Positions 659 through 39,667 of a stretch of DNA of 39,667 bases are shown here, one piece after another. Below the pieces are notes generated by a model. It saw nothing but the letters and a program-made list of their open reading frames with translations. It did no database searches and was not told the origin of the DNA. The stretch is taken from positions 1-39,667 of the IMG/VR virus record IMGVR_UViG_2645727555_000028; one strand, 5' to 3'. Position 1 is the first letter of the stretch. Every line of letters begins with the position of its first letter. Origin of the DNA: a virus (Duplodnaviria > Heunggongvirae > Uroviricota > Caudoviricetes). The position numbers were made by a program, and so were the translations under genes.

Positions 659-1354
659 ATGAAAAAGGAAATACTCAAGGCTCTTTGCCCTACATGCGGT
701 GGGTTACGTAACTGCACTGTGCATGGGAAGCTAACCACTAGCTGGGAGGATTCCCAATATCCAGTTTATGGGTACCATTACCATCACCTACTCCAATGCA
801 ATGGCTGTGATACTGTCTTCTATCACCACAACGAACACTTTAGTGAGCATACTACCCACGAATATCGTGATGGTGAATTTGTAGAAACGCCTATAGATAT
901 GATCACTACCTATCCTGCCGCTGAAACATTTCAAGCTCCGATATGGTTATCCAAGCTTGAATCAGTTGATCGTCAGCTCTTTCAAATATTTAATGAAATG
1001 TATTCTTCATATACTTCTGACCATTTCATTCTTTCGTCCATCGGTTTACGGACGATTTTTGATCGAACTGCTGAACTGTTACAAATTCACCCCGGTTTGC
1101 CGCTTGGTGAAAAAGTTGAAAAATTAAAACAAGATGGAGTCATAGGCGACACTGAGGCATGCGTTATATCTTCTGTAATTGATGCAGGAAACGCCGCCGC
1201 ACATCGCAGTTGGAGCCCGAATAAAAGTGAGTTCGAACAAATGCTAGAAGCTATAGAAAGTTTTGTCCAAAGAACTATCTTGGGCAAAAAATCACTTGAA
1301 CATATAACCAAACAACTCCCACCTCGGGTTACAAGACCTAAAAATAGTGCATAA
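659..1354 (+). CDS. cargo protein: N-terminal CxxC...CxxC zinc-ribbon plus C-terminal domain resembling DUF4145 (N-x3-H motif, GNAAAH)
   Basis: 231-aa ORF; Cys pairs at residues 10/13 and 47/50; C-terminal region with IDAGNAAAH; locus visibly AT-richer than the adjacent phage genes; sits in the slot where e14 carries mcrA. Confidence 0.5.
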   Translation: MKKEILKALCPTCGGLRNCTVHGKLTTSWEDSQYPVYGYHYHHLLQCNGCDTVFYHHNEHFSEHTTHEYRDGEFVETPIDMITTYPAAETFQAPIWLSKLESVDRQLFQIFNEMYSSYTSDHFILSSIGLRTIFDRTAELLQIHPGLPLGEKVEKLKQDGVIGDTEACVISSVIDAGNAAAHRSWSPNKSEFEQMLEAIESFVQRTILGKKSLEHITKQLPPRVTRPKNSA

Positions 1355-1380: not shown

Positions 1381-1938
1381 TTATGGTTTACTTGCTACAG
1401 GGAATTTTTTATACACCGTTGAAATACCCAGATCATAAATCAGTGCGACTTGCTGCTGATATATTCCCGATTCAATCAACCTGCCAGCCTGCTCCCATTG
1501 TTCTACTGTCAGCTTTGGCTTTCGCCCACCATTCCTCCCTTCTTGTCGTGCTGCGGCAAAGCCCGCCCTAGTACGTTCGACAATAAGCTCTCGCTCCATT
1601 TCAGCCAGGGCACCCATCACATGAAAGAAAAAGCGCCCCATTGGTGTGCTGGTATCAATAGCATCCGTCAGGCTGCGAAAATTAACGCCACGTTCGCGCA
1701 ACTCCTCCACCAGCACGACAAGATGCCGCATACTGCGCCCCAGTCGGTCCAGTTTCCAGACTACCAGAGTGTCACCTGCTGATAATGTTCTGAGCAGTTT
1801 TTTCAGTCCCGGTCGGTCGGACTTAGTGCCGCTGATCTTATCTTCAAAAATCAGCTCACATCCTGCACACTCCAGCGCATTACGCTGCAATTCCGTATTC
1901 TGGTCATTTGTTGATACGCGGACATAGCCAATAAGCAT
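1381..1938 (-). CDS. pin: serine-recombinase DNA invertase (Pin/Gin/Hin family)
   Basis: translation MLIGYVRVSTNDQNT...LVVWKLDRLGRS... is a canonical resolvase/invertase catalytic domain with a C-terminal HTH; start placed at the internal MLIGY Met by comparison with the 184-aa Pin I recall; a gix-like site lies immediately upstream. Confidence 0.9.
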   Translation of the reverse strand: MLIGYVRVSTNDQNTELQRNALECAGCELIFEDKISGTKSDRPGLKKLLRTLSAGDTLVVWKLDRLGRSMRHLVVLVEELRERGVNFRSLTDAIDTSTPMGRFFFHVMGALAEMERELIVERTRAGFAAARQEGRNGGRKPKLTVEQWEQAGRLIESGIYQQQVALIYDLGISTVYKKFPVASKP

Positions 1939-1996
1939 GAGCATTCCCCTGAGTAAAAACCGGGGATGATGCCAGTTAGCCATAATCTCTGCATTT

Positions 1997-4769: not shown

Positions 4770-5818
4770 GAAATCGTCCCCAGTACCGCCAGTTCGTTTT
4801 TCGCAATGGAGATATTGTCCACCGGTGCAAGCAACTGATGGCTGTATTCCCCGTTCGCACCGGAAATCGCCTCACTGATACGCGATACCTTGAGTTCTCC
4901 CTGCGGATAACCATCACGCAGCAGGAACGAACGCAACTCCGCGGTAATGGCAGCCCGTATTTCTGGTGTGTCCGGCGTCACGCGGATATGAAAATCCACC
5001 GTATGTGCCACCGGCCTGAATACATACAAATCAGAGCCTGCCACCGGGGCCAGTGGCCAGATATGTTGTCTTGCTGCCGTTTCCGTTGATTCTTCCGGAA
5101 TGGGATTAATCAGGTCACTGCTGGCAATCATCACACCGACAGTTCCCGTTCCCATCCAGTGACGGTATGTCCATGCGCGGGTAATGCCGGGCACTTCTTT
5201 AGCCCAGACGACATAGTCCCCGTCAGCCCCGCCCTGAGGCGTCCAGTAATACCGCTCAATGACGCGGGCGCGCCACGTTTCCAGCTCTTCAGTATCAAAT
5301 CCACCTGTCAGGGTATCTGCCACGCCGGAAGACGGCAGACCATTAACCGGCGTGACCAGGATTAATGACGTACCGTCGTCAGCGTTACCGACCGCGCCTG
5401 CACTTGAGCAGGCGATCGGCACGCGCAGGACACTACCGGAGCTGGTTGCATCGGCAGTTGCCGTGTACTGAACCAGGTCATCGCGCTGAATAACACTCCC
5501 GGCGGTCACCTTCAGGCCATCGCTGACACCTTCCCAGCGCATATACCCGCTGGCAGCCGTGGCCCCCTTGCGCGGACACCGTTTCATCGCAGCATGTCGC
5601 GCCAGCCAGGACTCATCGCACAGGTCAGGCAGAATGTTCATTGCCAGATAATCGATGTACCCGTAAACCGTATGCAGCGCCGCCGCATACACCTTTGCCC
5701 GCACGTCTTCATCCATGCGCCGGAGCGTGTCGCTGACGTCCAGCCTGGCGAATAAATCGTTACGGAGCATACTGATATTTTCTGCCAGCGTCGGGCGCTG
5801 AAATTCACTGTCCGCCAT
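4760..5818 (-). CDS. baseplate J-like protein (Mu gp47 family)
   Basis: 352 aa; order within the Mu-type baseplate module. Confidence 0.75.
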
Positions 5819-31682: not shown

Positions 31683-32114
31683 AAAAGAAACATGTCACAG
31701 GCAAGATTAAACAAAATTTGGTTGTAACACGGCGTATGGCACATGCGTCGTTAGCGGTCTGGGGACGTTAAAGGGGACAATCCACTCCTTGCTCGGGCAA
31801 ACAAACCAGGTAGCCGGAATGTGCAAGTCAATGATGATGCTGATAAGACGCCTAACCAGCGTGGCGATTCGGTTTGACGCCTGGGAAGAGACCAGGGTGC
31901 AACGATGAGGGCATTTATGGAACCGCGACAAAGTGTGGTGCCGTAACTGGCTAAGTGCTCTCAGCGTTGTGGTGAATGCGCAGGCTGATGCGCGAAAGAC
32001 ATTGCAGCTATTGCGGAAAAGAGCTGTTCGGCGGGGCAATTAAACGCCCGTGAGAGTCTGAAATAACCGCAAGCCGGAGATCAGCACCGGTCACCACAAC
32101 AGCCACTGCTTTGG

Positions 32115-32160
32115 CGGTACCAGTTTGTACACTTGCTTCCGGCTGGTACCGCTCTTTTTA
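32115..32160 (+). terminator. terminator-like hairpin in the early-left leader
   Basis: 10-bp perfect stem gcggtaccag/ctggtaccgc with an 18-nt loop, followed by tcttttta. Confidence 0.5.
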
Positions 32161-36505: not shown

Positions 36506-37077
36506 TGAACAACTTAATGATCGACCTTGAGACGATGGGGAAAAATAAGGATGCACCGATCGTTTCCATTGGCGCGGTGTTCTTCACTCCAGAAACCGGA
36601 GACATCGGACAAGAATTCTATACGGTTGTTAGCCTGGAAAGTGCTATGGGGCAAGGAGCTACACCTGACGGCGATACCATCCTGTGGTGGTTGAAACAAA
36701 GCCCTGAAGCACGAGCTGCAATCTGTATTGATGATACTTTGTCGATCAGCGATGCTCTCTCAGAACTAAATCATTTCATTAACCGGCACGCAGCCAATAC
36801 GAAATATTTAAAAGTCTGGGGTAACGGGGCCACCTTCGACAACGTAATTTTACGTGGAGCTTATGAGCGAGCAGGACAAATCTGCCCGTGGGCATACTGG
36901 AATGACCACGATGTACGCACGATCGTTACGCTTGGGCGTTCCATCGGATTCGACCCAAAAATGGACATGCCTTTCGATGGCGAACGGCACAACGCCCTGG
37001 CTGATGCCCGTCATCAGGCAAAATATGTTTCCGCTATCTGGCAGAAATTAATTCCTGCCACCAGCACAGAATTATGA
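36502..37077 (+). CDS. 3'-5' exonuclease (DnaQ-like fold)
   Basis: 191 aa; N-terminal MIDLETMG acidic motif, conserved H/D near the C-terminus. Confidence 0.65.
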   Translation: MMNNLMIDLETMGKNKDAPIVSIGAVFFTPETGDIGQEFYTVVSLESAMGQGATPDGDTILWWLKQSPEARAAICIDDTLSISDALSELNHFINRHAANTKYLKVWGNGATFDNVILRGAYERAGQICPWAYWNDHDVRTIVTLGRSIGFDPKMDMPFDGERHNALADARHQAKYVSAIWQKLIPATSTEL

Positions 37078-37113
37078 TTTTCCCGGGTGCAGCCGGTTTT
37101 GATGGAGAAAATT

Positions 37114-37395
37114 ATGAACACCTTGTTTTTACTGATGGCTGAATTCAATACCCCTAACATTGAACTCTCAGCAGTTAGCCAAAAGTACTTTGGCATGAGT
37201 CCAGCCACGGCAGAAGCAAAAGCAAACGCTTGTAAGTTGCCAGTTCCAACATATCGCATCGGCACATCACAAAAAGCAAAACGTTGCATCAATATTCAGG
37301 ATCTTGCGGAATACATAGACAAAAGACGAGAAGAAGGACGTATCGAGTGGGAACAGGTCAGAACAGGCAAACAGAAGGGCAAAGAACATCACTAA
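37114..37395 (+). CDS. PrtN / excisionase-like small DNA-binding protein
   Basis: start at MNTLFLLMAEF... with GGAGAA RBS; position at the end of the early-left operon. Confidence 0.5.
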   Translation: MNTLFLLMAEFNTPNIELSAVSQKYFGMSPATAEAKANACKLPVPTYRIGTSQKAKRCINIQDLAEYIDKRREEGRIEWEQVRTGKQKGKEHH

Positions 37396-37425
37396 AGAAA
37401 AAACCCGCCTAAAGGCGGGTTTTCA
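37396..37425. terminator. bidirectional intrinsic terminator
   Basis: gaaaaaa-cccgcc-taaa-ggcggg-ttttc: GC stem flanked by an A-run and a T-run. Confidence 0.8.
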
Positions 37426-37442
37426 AAAAGCACCAGCTATGA

Positions 37443-37616
37443 TCATGCTGCTTTGCGACGACGAAGCTTACCCTGCTGCTCTTTACCAGAGACAGTAGCG
37501 TGAGTGAACGCATTAGGAGCAGCCTTCATCAGAACTTCAACAGCAGCACCCATACCTGCGAATGCTTTCATTGTGTCGAACTTAACCTGTGGCTTGGTTG
37601 CTTTTTGATCTTTCAT
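37443..37616 (-). CDS. small Lys/Ala-rich protein (57 aa)
   Basis: hand-translated MKDQKATKPQVKFDTMKAFAGMGAAVEVLMKAAPNAFTHATVSGKEQQGKLRRRKAA; GGGAG RBS; ends at the bidirectional terminator. Confidence 0.5.
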   Translation of the reverse strand: MKDQKATKPQVKFDTMKAFAGMGAAVEVLMKAAPNAFTHATVSGKEQQGKLRRRKAA

Positions 37617-37812
37617 AGAAAACTCCCGAGACAGTAAAGGCGTCTCTAACCCTCTCTTTAAAGCTAGCTTGTTTCGCTAACTTATGCCAATCGATCATGT
37701 CGATTGGTGACATCGTTTCTTAGTAGTTTAAGCACAAAACGACTGCCATAGATGTACCTTTAAGGTAATCTGGACGGGTATCCTACAATTTGTAGCCCCT
37801 TCTCGTCTATAC

Positions 37813-38349
37813 CTACTGAGCAAATTTAAGAAAGATATCCTGCAGCTCATCAATGACTGCAGACATCACATAACCGCACTGTTCCATGCGGAAACCAAAA
37901 GACTCGTAATACTGCACCAGTTCTGGTACTGGCTCTACAATGTGGACAACTTTACATTCAACAGCTTTACAAAATATAAAAGCACTCATAAGAGTGAGTA
38001 AAACCATGCGCCCTTTCAATGGGTGAGATTCATCTTCTCTAGAAAACCTTTCGATCATATGGATACGAAAGATGTTTTCTTCAACCCCATAAACACAAAT
38101 TGCTGCTCCTGATGGTATTCCCTGAACCCGACCTTGCTGAACAAGTTTTATGCAGAACTCATACTTTTCTCTGGAGTTGCCATAGGTGCTTAACGCATAG
38201 TCCCATTCAAGCTCACCATAGCCACCACACAGAATCTTGTAATCATCATCACTGAGCGGACCAACAGCAAGAGGTAAGCCGACATGATCAATAATCAACT
38301 GGATATTGTTACGTACAGATTGACCTATCTCGTCTAGGGTAAGCATCAT
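37813..38349 (-). CDS. cargo protein, possibly GNAT-fold acetyltransferase-like
   Basis: 178 aa; AT-rich; ...PLKGRMVLLTL... and ...VQYYESFGF... loosely resemble GNAT motifs A and B; own promoter-like TATAAT upstream. Confidence 0.35.
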   Translation of the reverse strand: MMLTLDEIGQSVRNNIQLIIDHVGLPLAVGPLSDDDYKILCGGYGELEWDYALSTYGNSREKYEFCIKLVQQGRVQGIPSGAAICVYGVEENIFRIHMIERFSREDESHPLKGRMVLLTLMSAFIFCKAVECKVVHIVEPVPELVQYYESFGFRMEQCGYVMSAVIDELQDIFLKFAQ

Positions 38350-38894
38350 AGACTCTCAAGCGGAACACTAAAAATCTCATTATATCTCATTCTGATGCCC
38401 CGCATGGATTACACCTTGAAATGAAAACACCGGGTTCCCAATAGGCACCCACAAAGTGTATAACTACTTGTTTTTCAAAAACGGTACATCCTATCGAGCA
38501 TTGGTGCAACGCTAAACCGACCACTCCAGTGAACGTCAGTTTTTTCAGGCATTGCGCTGGTTTGGTTGATTTTTTGCATTTCAGAATTACCGTGCATTTT
38601 CAAATGTAGAGATTATTTTATCGATATATCATGGGGTTATGTTATTCAGCATCACTATTCAGGAGGCTCAATAGCGGGGTACTATACCATAACAACAGGA
38701 AGCGCCTGTCTCATTGCAAAAGAAAATTGAGATCCTCTCAAGGCATGAAGCTCTCACGAAGTGATGGAAATAATCTTATTAGCCGTTAACTTTGTTAAGG
38801 CCAATGATAAACAATCCAGGTTCGACGATAAATAAATAATCACACATTAAACTCTGGTGATATATCTCCCTGCTAATAGCATTGATAGAGAAAA

Positions 38895-38925
38895 AAGAAC
38901 CCAATAAATATTGGGTCCTTTTATA
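38895..38925 (-). terminator. intrinsic terminator after the 235-aa ORF
   Basis: acccaat-aaat-attgggt hairpin with a T-run on the minus strand (plus-strand gaaaaaagaa before the stem). Confidence 0.55.
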
Positions 38926-38959
38926 TAATGCCTTCCATACTATCGAAGAACTTCACATA

Positions 38960-39667
38960 TTATTTCTCCGATTTAACCCCGAACAAATCATAAATTAATT
39001 TAGAAGTGTCTGTAAGTATTTTAATCTCTTCCTTTGAGGTTGGGTCAAACGACTTCGCGAAGCTAATTAATTGTGGTGCAGCATCTCGCATTTTGCTTAA
39101 AATATCAGGATCGAGCGTTCCTTCATTCACCAGATGTGACATCTTATCCAGATAGCCATCAAAATTCATTTCTCCCCCATCAGCCAGACGCTTCATCTCT
39201 CCCAGGTACTTCTTCATATCACGTTGAGATAATTTTTCAAACTGAGCTTTCAGGTAGCTCTCATTATTTTCATTAATATACACTGTTTCTGATAAATCTG
39301 CGTAGGCACTAGAATATGAAAGTGAAATTAACAGCGAAGCAAATAATTTTAAGCTGTTGTCATCATGTTCCTGGCAGGCATTAACAAACGTTAAAAAACC
39401 AGAACCTATTGCTTGAAAATGTATATTCGCTAAAGGTTCATTATCCTTAGATTCCTCATAAAATAGCTGAACCGTGGAGGGAAGGCCATTCTTAGTTTCT
39501 ACATCAAAAGTACATTGTTCAATGGGAGTCGCATCTTTATTATCCCCAGGATTACATATACTATTAATCGCGAAATGAAAAATAGCCCGGTCAACAACTG
39601 ATGCAATAAAGTCACGATCGTTTAAATCCTCATCAGTGCAATCGTCAATATACTTATTGACCCACAT
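38960..39667 (-). CDS. hypothetical cargo protein (235 aa or more; reaches the window edge)
   Basis: AT-rich ORF with no recognisable family; an ATG sits at the window edge but the gene may extend further. Confidence 0.45.
   Translation of the reverse strand: MWVNKYIDDCTDEDLNDRDFIASVVDRAIFHFAINSICNPGDNKDATPIEQCTFDVETKNGLPSTVQLFYEESKDNEPLANIHFQAIGSGFLTFVNACQEHDDNSLKLFASLLISLSYSSAYADLSETVYINENNESYLKAQFEKLSQRDMKKYLGEMKRLADGGEMNFDGYLDKMSHLVNEGTLDPDILSKMRDAAPQLISFAKSFDPTSKEEIKILTDTSKLIYDLFGVKSEK

Follow-up and report, generated by a model that had tools for sequence, protein, structure and literature searches.

We analysed the right end (positions 37426-39667) of a stretch of 39,667 nucleotides, hereafter the window, which is positions 1-39,667 of virus record IMGVR_UViG_2645727555_000028. 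Here the early operon of a phage gives way to three minus-strand open reading frames (ORFs), which encode proteins of 57, 178, and 235 amino acids (aa) and lie in the ORF list at 37443-37616, 37813-38349, and 38960-39667, respectively, the ATG of the third being the final three bases of the window. Their left neighbour is a plus-strand excisionase-like gene of the PrtN/pyocin-activator family (37087-37395; Pfam PF11112, E = 4.2e-23; PHROG 1300 ‘excisionase’, E = 8.4e-40), which ends the early operon and forms the left border of a cargo slot. Directly after it comes a G+C-rich hairpin terminator (37399-37424) with an 11-pair stem (6 G-C), a 4-nt loop, a T-run on the minus strand and an A-run on the opposite side, and it is common to the convergent excisionase-like and 57-aa genes.

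An earlier reading made from the letters alone (the sequence-only reading) had taken the three ORFs as an AT-rich cargo island standing where an integrase would be expected, behind a strong terminator, distinct from the phage operon in composition and equipped with its own promoter-like and terminator elements. The ORFs and the terminator are where it placed them, and the composition does shift, as the G+C content is 0.42 at 37501-38500 and 0.37-0.38 at 38501-39500, whereas the adjoining early operon is at 0.45-0.50 and the structural genes are at about 0.55. The terminator scan gave 6 terminator-like sites, more than in shuffled sequences (1.7 ± 1.4), and it placed a second such hairpin at 38893-38922 on the minus strand, 3′ of the 235-aa ORF. 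On the other hand, generic σ70 promoter-like matches are at chance level (6 observed, 6.7 ± 2.6 expected), and conserved elements were relied on instead. An Rfam scan of 37000-39667 gave only sub-threshold terminator-like matches.

Prophage-host junction within dusA

The region spans attL of a prophage that has integrated into host dusA, at the 5′ end of the gene. Aligned with E. coli K-12 and phage mEp460, the window follows the K-12 dusA region, including host-specific variants, up to ...CACCAATGCTCGA, and then becomes phage sequence. When attR of strain GF66.2 was included, the four-way alignment of attB, attP, attL, and attR displayed the pattern of attB × attP yielding attL and attR, with an 8-bp core, ATGCTCGA on the minus strand (38494-38501), at the crossover between dusA and phage. 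Identity flanking the core is imperfect among the four sites. Independently of the att alignment, the match of intact dusA to the window, in genomes free of the prophage, begins at exactly 38494. Phage DNA stops at 38493, and the DNA to the right of the core is host DNA.

On the phage side, the attL arm (38350-38493, minus strand), which is the P′ arm of attP, agrees with the attP of mEp460 but not with K-12 dusA. On the host side, a 42-codon ORF (38475-38603, minus strand) is the remnant of the dusA 5′ end; it is K-12-identical up to the core, host-specific variants included, is host-derived at 38494-38603, takes its final codons and stop from the phage, and is annotated by RefSeq as ‘tRNA-dihydrouridine synthase, incomplete’. 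Next to it lies the native dusA upstream region, the yjbM-dusA intergenic sequence (38604-38959, minus strand), which is identical to that of K-12 and holds the yjbM terminator hairpin. The 610 nt that had seemed a long intergenic stretch inside the island thus consist of a phage att arm, the att core, the dusA remnant, and the dusA upstream region.

The 235-aa ORF is yjbM. Its product matches DUF2713 (PF10897, E = 9.9e-166) over positions 1-235 of 235 and shares 233 of 235 residues (99%) with K-12 YjbM, and its chromosomal neighbours are the usual zur, yjbJ, dinF, and lexA. It is an ordinary host gene outside the prophage. In a megablast search of 5426 complete E. coli genomes, 332 hold most of 37400-39667 and about 4380 hold part of it; the host part is matched in about 4380, whereas phage mEp460 matches only 37400-38600. 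The annotated features under the matches are ‘DUF2713’, two hypothetical proteins, and the incomplete ‘tRNA-dihydrouridine synthase’. The sequence-only reading had named conserved host genes outside the prophage as the outcome that would overturn it, and this outcome holds for yjbM but not for the two phage genes.

Incidentally, yjbL and yjbM are separate in K-12, while other strains have a single DUF2713 ORF of about 330 aa (loci L001 7561-8548, L006 3203-4195, and L003 2322-3307), and this ORF is frameshifted in strain A39. The K-12 genes may be a split form.

Position of the integrase

In mEp460 the gene order is PrtN/xis (+), 57 aa (−), 178 aa (−), attP with a dusA-like 5′ end, int (+), and dinI (+). 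With the order xis, cargo, attP, and int, integration sends int to the opposite end of the prophage. The prophage of GF66.2, whose left end is 99.9% identical to that of the window, has there a 1098-nt integrase gene that is divergent from a restored full-length dusA and stops one base before window position 1. Because the window starts one base after this stop and ends on the yjbM ATG, int and attR would lie just outside it.

The integrase is neither missing nor replaced, and the notion of cargo in the place of an integrase is withdrawn. Of the int and att that were to be sought beyond the window, attL lies inside it at 38494-38501, and int was found in GF66.2 before position 1. The analogy once drawn with e14 and its lit gene does not extend to the integration module here, a dusA-specific one. 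Farrugia et al. (2015, PMC4482086) described elements with dusA-specific integrases, which replace the 5′ end of dusA, leave the native 5′ remnant in place, and are bounded on either side by a semi-conserved att repeat of 21 bp. The insertion studied here lies inside the dusA 5′ end, and the element provides a new dusA 5′ end beside a tyrosine integrase, with the remnant at the other junction, as the integrase end of GF66.2 and the attP of mEp460 show. The architecture of the prophage, with attL and host yjbM, is therefore ordinary and already described.

A cassette hotspot between xis and attP

The integrase is found in 728 of the 5426 complete E. coli genomes, and about half of these carriers (356 of 5426) have the arrangement of xis, the 57-aa gene, the 178-aa gene, and the truncated dusA. 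Carriers of the two-gene pair include O157:H7 and O111 E. coli and very many Salmonella and Enterobacter assemblies. In most of the other carriers sampled, the same slot holds a Panacea or YafO module. A Panacea gene (PanA, PF13274) with a 139-aa partner occupies it in 206 of 5426 genomes and was identified in phages SKA5 and Lys8385Vzw; Panacea with a 153-aa partner does so in 46 genomes and was identified in GF66.2; and a third Panacea pair and a pair with a YafO toxin (PF13957) were each seen in single genomes examined. Every sampled alternative is a toxin-antitoxin (TA) module. The xis-attP slot of dusA-integrating E. coli phages is thus a cassette hotspot, which is absent from the account of Farrugia et al. 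(PMC4482086).

The swap in SKA5 and Lys8385Vzw has removed the 178-aa gene, the leader, and the promoter of the small gene, and has left the small ORF, its ribosome-binding site, and its terminator intact. Conversely, the 178-aa gene without the small gene was found at none of about 20 loci inspected. With predicted promoter-like elements of its own, a predicted terminator, a G+C content of 0.42, and replacement by PanAT or YafO modules in sibling phages, the pair has the features of a moron.

A 179-aa protein encoded upstream of YafO in uropathogenic E. coli (UPEC) 26-1 was considered as a homologue of the 178-aa protein and rejected, as there is no homology. In this strain (locus L035 1307-2718) the slot with the 179-aa gene and the YafO toxin gene abuts zur, and the dusA remnant and yjbM are lost, which points to a junction deletion.

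Conservation of the pair

A small gene follows the 178-aa gene 80-200 nt downstream in the same orientation at every homologue locus examined; in the window the distance is 196 nt. The pair is present in 12 of 12 loci from other genera, in various surroundings. In Salmonella it lies at the dusA attL, and in Shewanella frigidimarina it directly adjoins a dusA 5′ remnant encoding ‘...FSIAPMLD’. It is flanked by a DUF968 gene and a methylase/holin block in E. hormaechei, lies between antiterminator Q and lysis genes in Serratia, stands at a prophage edge in Pseudescherichia vulneris, and is placed within a tail module in Photorhabdus. Relatives of the 178-aa protein with 32-35% identity are also followed by a small basic partner. 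The pair therefore moves as a unit among att-proximal, Q/lysis, tail-module, and prophage-edge positions. As it is kept across these contexts and this divergence, the two products are expected to work together, and probably to act on each other.

Some of these loci have further features. The S. frigidimarina locus (L009) has two tandem dusA 5′-like fragments upstream of the homologue (about 5380-5440 and 5630-5705), which suggests successive integrations, or their remnants, at one att site. A P2-like prophage (L039 2306-8531) carries a distant pair (32% identity) right after its integrase, beside DUF7946, Bro-N, and a faint SIR2 match, a neighbourhood typical of defence hotspots. A Serratia liquefaciens prophage with the pair also encodes, 3′ of its lysis cassette, an Acb2/Tad1-hairpin protein (L024 8488-8769) of the anti-CBASS/Thoeris sponge family.

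The two proteins

As the sequence-only reading had supposed, the 178-aa protein is GNAT-like. It has the GNAT fold, with a mixed β-sheet, a V-shaped split between β4 and β5, and helices α3 and α4. Its structural matches include the toxins TacT3, TacT2, and AtaT, and its structural neighbours include Gcn5/PCAF, NatD, RimI/RimJ, and SpeG. The protein belongs to PHROG 4350 and the 57-aa protein to PHROG 2741 (E = 8.1e-36), both of unknown function in PHROGs. The profile searches suggested earlier for the three proteins thus gave a named family for YjbM and only such PHROG families for the other two.

By sequence, the GNAT-fold protein is an orphan. It has no Pfam family at E ≤ 1 and no NCBIfam match, and what a profile search of the PDB yielded were spurious matches alone, to designed and coiled-coil proteins. 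By word-indexed search, 51 homologues were recovered from Enterobacterales, Plesiomonas, and Shewanella, and when 1.84 billion representative proteins were searched exhaustively with a profile, just 93 relatives came up at E ≤ 1e-3. Of 66 of these, just one gave a marginal match to Acetyltransf_1. The conserved positions include W49, H97, E100, an H-P-L-x-G-(R/K)-M loop, Y148, and an FGF motif. Y148, which is in α4 and precedes FGF, is nearly invariant in the 66 relatives, and H97 and E100 are invariant in close relatives. Judged by sequence, the invariant H-P-L-x-G-(R/K)-M sits between β4 and α3 at the position of the motif that binds the pyrophosphate of acetyl-CoA, and deviates from Q/R-x-x-G-x-G/A. 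The length is 178 aa when counted from the first ATG and 177 aa from the second (38346); the latter is probably the true start, because homologues and RefSeq begin at the second Met.

The two proteins are of opposite charge. In 31 of 32 homologues the GNAT-fold protein is acidic, with an isoelectric point (pI) of 4.3-4.9 and a net charge between −10 and −18, whereas the 57-aa protein has a pI of 10.5 and a net charge of +7.6. In the alignment of 11 homologues from which the partner range was taken, the other ten have a pI of 9.7-10.8. This complementarity of an acidic GNAT and a basic partner is kept throughout the homologues compared. Three distant partners are basic as well (pI 9.8-11.1), and share with the 57-aa protein a central helix and an invariant E-x-x-G followed by Lys/Arg. 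AlphaFold2 predicts for the 57-aa protein a lone central helix (residues 15-37) and disorder in the remainder, at a low predicted local distance difference test score (pLDDT) of 61. The protein has no Pfam or NCBIfam match. Its C-terminus is almost always Ala-Ala or Lys-Ala across the homologues, and a C-terminal Ala-Ala resembles ClpXP degrons.

Expression signals

Because generic σ70 matches are at chance level, the promoter-like elements described here are based on conservation across genera. That of the 57-aa gene (37780-37809, minus strand) is directly 3′ of the GNAT stop and consists of −35 TAGACG (37804-37809), an 18-nt spacer, and −10 TAGGAT (37780-37785). It varies little or not at all among 12 loci from 12 taxa, and aligns with a near-consensus TTGATA-N17-TATAAT in Shewanella. 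The GNAT gene has a −10-like TATAAT (38379-38384, minus strand) 29 nt upstream of its ATG, and a −10-like block is kept at equal distance in loci of unrelated genomic context. Transcripts of the GNAT gene and of the 57-aa gene are predicted to start near 38372 and 37773, respectively.

Between its promoter-like element and its start, the 57-aa gene has a putative structured leader of about 157 nt (37617-37775, minus strand). The minimum free energy is −49.2 kcal/mol (z = −3.74), and none of 200 shuffles folds as well. The inverted repeats are at about 37754-37769, at 37687-37707 (CCAATCGA-N5-TCGATTGG), and at 37661-37683. They are kept as hairpins across Enterobacteriaceae, with 3 compensatory pairs and a weak covariation term of +1.6 kcal/mol, and the leader is absent in Photorhabdus. 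As the covariation is weak, we do not claim an RNA element, and the repeats may be RNA hairpins or DNA operators.

The host dusA promoter is now aimed into the GNAT gene, and the terminator scan gave no convincing terminator between the two, so read-through probably adds expression. In the lysogen, the pair would then be transcribed from its own promoters plus read-through from the dusA promoter.

Other features of the window

The window starts with a dinI-like gene (62-310), and cargo-like genes also lie 3′ of it, at the other end of the prophage. One encodes a 231-aa DUF4145-domain protein (659-1354, plus strand) in a stretch of low G+C (0.41-0.43). The other encodes a Pin/Hin-type serine recombinase (1381-1983, minus strand) and adjoins invertible tail-fibre genes.

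An ArcA-modulated small RNA of 193 nt, sRNA-17, has been described in an mEp460-like prophage of E. coli K1 RS218, in a study that dropped ‘hypothetical protein’ genes before delimiting intergenic regions (PMC7719688). A position of sRNA-17 inside the cargo region was considered and rejected, as the primers map to about 32045-32152. Its primer and probe sites are found exactly at 32045-32076 and 32127-32152, which places the small RNA at about 31965-32158 on the minus strand, where it may overlap an ORF.

Discussion

We propose that the two-gene moron at this attL end, the GNAT-fold protein and its small partner, acts as a TA-like conflict module, a reading that we hold tentatively at slightly less than an even chance. 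A toxin or defence role of the cargo is a reasonable guess, since sibling phages hold PanA and YafO modules in the same slot. In the proposed mechanism, the GNAT would be a harmful enzyme restrained by the small, probably protease-labile protein, the basic tail of which would enter the acidic groove where the GNAT binds its substrate and would there inhibit the enzyme, accept the acetyl group, or do both. The module would serve addiction, abortive infection, or exclusion.

In its specific form, the proposal is a new conflict module unrelated to TacT/AtaT and widespread in Enterobacterales prophages, in which an acidic orphan GNAT is restrained by, or acetylates, a basic disordered peptide made labile by its Ala-Ala end. 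Released on infection or on prophage loss, the GNAT would then cause growth arrest or the exclusion of rival phages. This form is possible but somewhat unlikely. The pairing, the charge complementarity, the disorder of the partner, its ExxG-K/R tail and Ala-Ala end, the separate promoter, and the exclusive company of TA modules in the slot would all be consistent with a TA-like conflict module. That, in the loci inspected, the small gene occurs without the GNAT gene and not the reverse would be the asymmetry expected of a toxin and its antitoxin.

Several points weigh against such a module. The GNAT gene comes first and is followed by a 196-nt spacer, unlike in classic overlapping TA operons, and the polarity is unusual with an acidic presumed toxin and a basic presumed antitoxin. 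In Enterobacteriaceae, identity is higher for the small protein (79-93%) than for the GNAT (65-72%), contrary to what fast-evolving antitoxins show, and the small protein could itself be the effector. None of the three proteins had a PADLOC-DB v2 match at E ≤ 1, and a look at the literature on either protein of the pair, including prophage GNATs and exclusion, gave nothing relevant. The hotspot neighbours are guilt by location alone, and the absence of a GNAT without a partner comes from few loci.

The higher conservation of the small protein would agree with a reversal of roles, in which the small basic protein is an effector on a host target (nucleic acid, ribosome, or RNA polymerase) and the GNAT switches it by acetylation of Lys or the N-terminus, as a type VII-like TA system or a regulatory pair. 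Gene order and charges would then fit the usual succession of an acidic neutraliser and a basic effector, the ExxG-Lys/Arg tail resembles the G-K acceptor sites in histone-tail substrates of GNATs, and the structural neighbours Gcn5/PCAF, NatD, RimI/RimJ, and SpeG act on basic substrates. However, SKA5 and Lys8385Vzw keep the small ORF and its ribosome-binding site intact with no GNAT, so the small protein is not lethal alone; it is also predicted to be mostly disordered, and nothing points to a target. We regard this reversal as unlikely. If the two genes were unrelated neighbours, on the other hand, the GNAT could be a stand-alone acetyltransferase moron, for resistance to an antibiotic or another small molecule or for modification of host or rival-phage proteins in anti-defence or takeover. 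AcrVA5 and the Rac and Qst GNATs of Pseudomonas phages are examples of anti-defence or host-takeover acetyltransferases. The GNAT fold with plausible catalytic residues, a promoter-like element for each gene, and the late-region position by Q/lysis genes in Serratia and E. hormaechei, where lytic expression is expected too, would agree with this. But order and adjacency are strict in four unrelated contexts, and still so where identity is as low as about 32% and the partner co-diverges, which argues strongly against chance neighbours, and the complementary charge is kept throughout. A stand-alone moron is less probable still than the reversal.

Membership in the canonical TA systems of a GNAT and a ribbon-helix-helix (RHH) protein (TacAT/AtaRT/ItaRT/KacAT), in which acetylation of aminoacyl-tRNA is blocked by the antitoxin, would suit a cassette in a TA hotspot. 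The sequence-only reading had suggested a GNAT-type toxin, and as a member of a known family this could not be upheld. Even among remote relatives there is no Pfam GNAT match beyond a single marginal one, and the PDB search gave no match in sequence. Upstream of the GNAT gene are the att arm and the dusA remnant rather than an overlapping DUF1778/RHH antitoxin gene, and the partner is downstream, of 57 aa, without a Pfam match, and predicted to be disordered. tRNA-acetylating toxins use positively charged surfaces; the net charge here lies between −10 and −18, and judged by net charge alone the enzyme has no basic tRNA-binding surface. We rejected TacT/AtaT membership on the grounds of sequence, the lack of an upstream DUF1778 antitoxin, and the acidic enzyme, and consider the canonical mechanism very improbable. 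The three-gene AT-rich island in the integrase's place has practically no probability left. The shared strand, the low G+C, and the lack of int inside the window had favoured it, and it is refuted by the attL and the dusA remnant that separate the third, host gene from the others and by the integrase at the other prophage end. What stands of it is an autonomous phage-borne cargo of two genes beside the excisionase-like gene.

The prophage architecture adds little to what is already known. The cargo pair, on the other hand, is uncharacterised yet common (356 of 5426 complete E. coli genomes), and alternates with bona fide TA modules at one sharply bounded slot of E. coli. Should it be a conflict module built of a GNAT and a partner peptide, it would be a new family in the GNAT toxin and defence repertoire and a simple two-gene system to test. 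The xis-attP slot of dusA-integrating phages can be used as a hotspot for mining cassettes.

Comparison with known systems

This prophage has in common with other elements that use dusA-specific integrases, both prophages and genomic islands, the insertion in the dusA 5′ end, a new dusA 5′ end and promoter beside int, and the native 5′ remnant at the other junction (PMC4482086). Those elements have a short semi-conserved att repeat, and here an 8-bp core with imperfect flanks is common to the four att sites. There is no essential difference, the window just lacking the end with int and attR.

The pair resembles the GNAT/RHH systems (TacAT, AtaRT, ItaRT, and KacAT) in combining a GNAT-fold enzyme, with structural matches to TacT3, TacT2, and AtaT, and a small protein. 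In those systems the C-terminus of the antitoxin fills the active site of the toxin, and TacA is acetylated by TacT; the docking or acetylation of the tail proposed here would follow the same logic. On the other hand, the GNAT lies outside their sequence families and is strongly acidic, and its partner is downstream, is not of the RHH/DUF1778 kind, and is set off by a 196-nt spacer with a separate promoter-like element. The pair also resembles mqsRA and rnlAB, TA modules in which the toxin gene leads and the antitoxin has an internal promoter. Here too the larger gene, presumed harmful, precedes the small one, and a separate promoter-like element for the presumed neutraliser lies just past the end of the larger gene. 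There is no homology to these modules, and harm and neutralisation are here presumed from the arrangement.

Lambdoid morons and the att-proximal defence hotspots of P2 and P4 are comparable in another way. Unlike the described moron and defence systems, the content here is an orphan GNAT with a small basic protein, negative in PADLOC. Like them, the pair is an autonomous unit of promoter, gene, and terminator with lower G+C, is variably present among near-identical phages, and is found at att-proximal, Q/lysis, and tail-module sites. In position the pair is like the PanAT and YafO modules. Although their proteins are unrelated, neither protein of the pair matching PF13274 or PF13957, they occupy the identical xis-attP slot in the identical orientation in sibling dusA-integrating phages.

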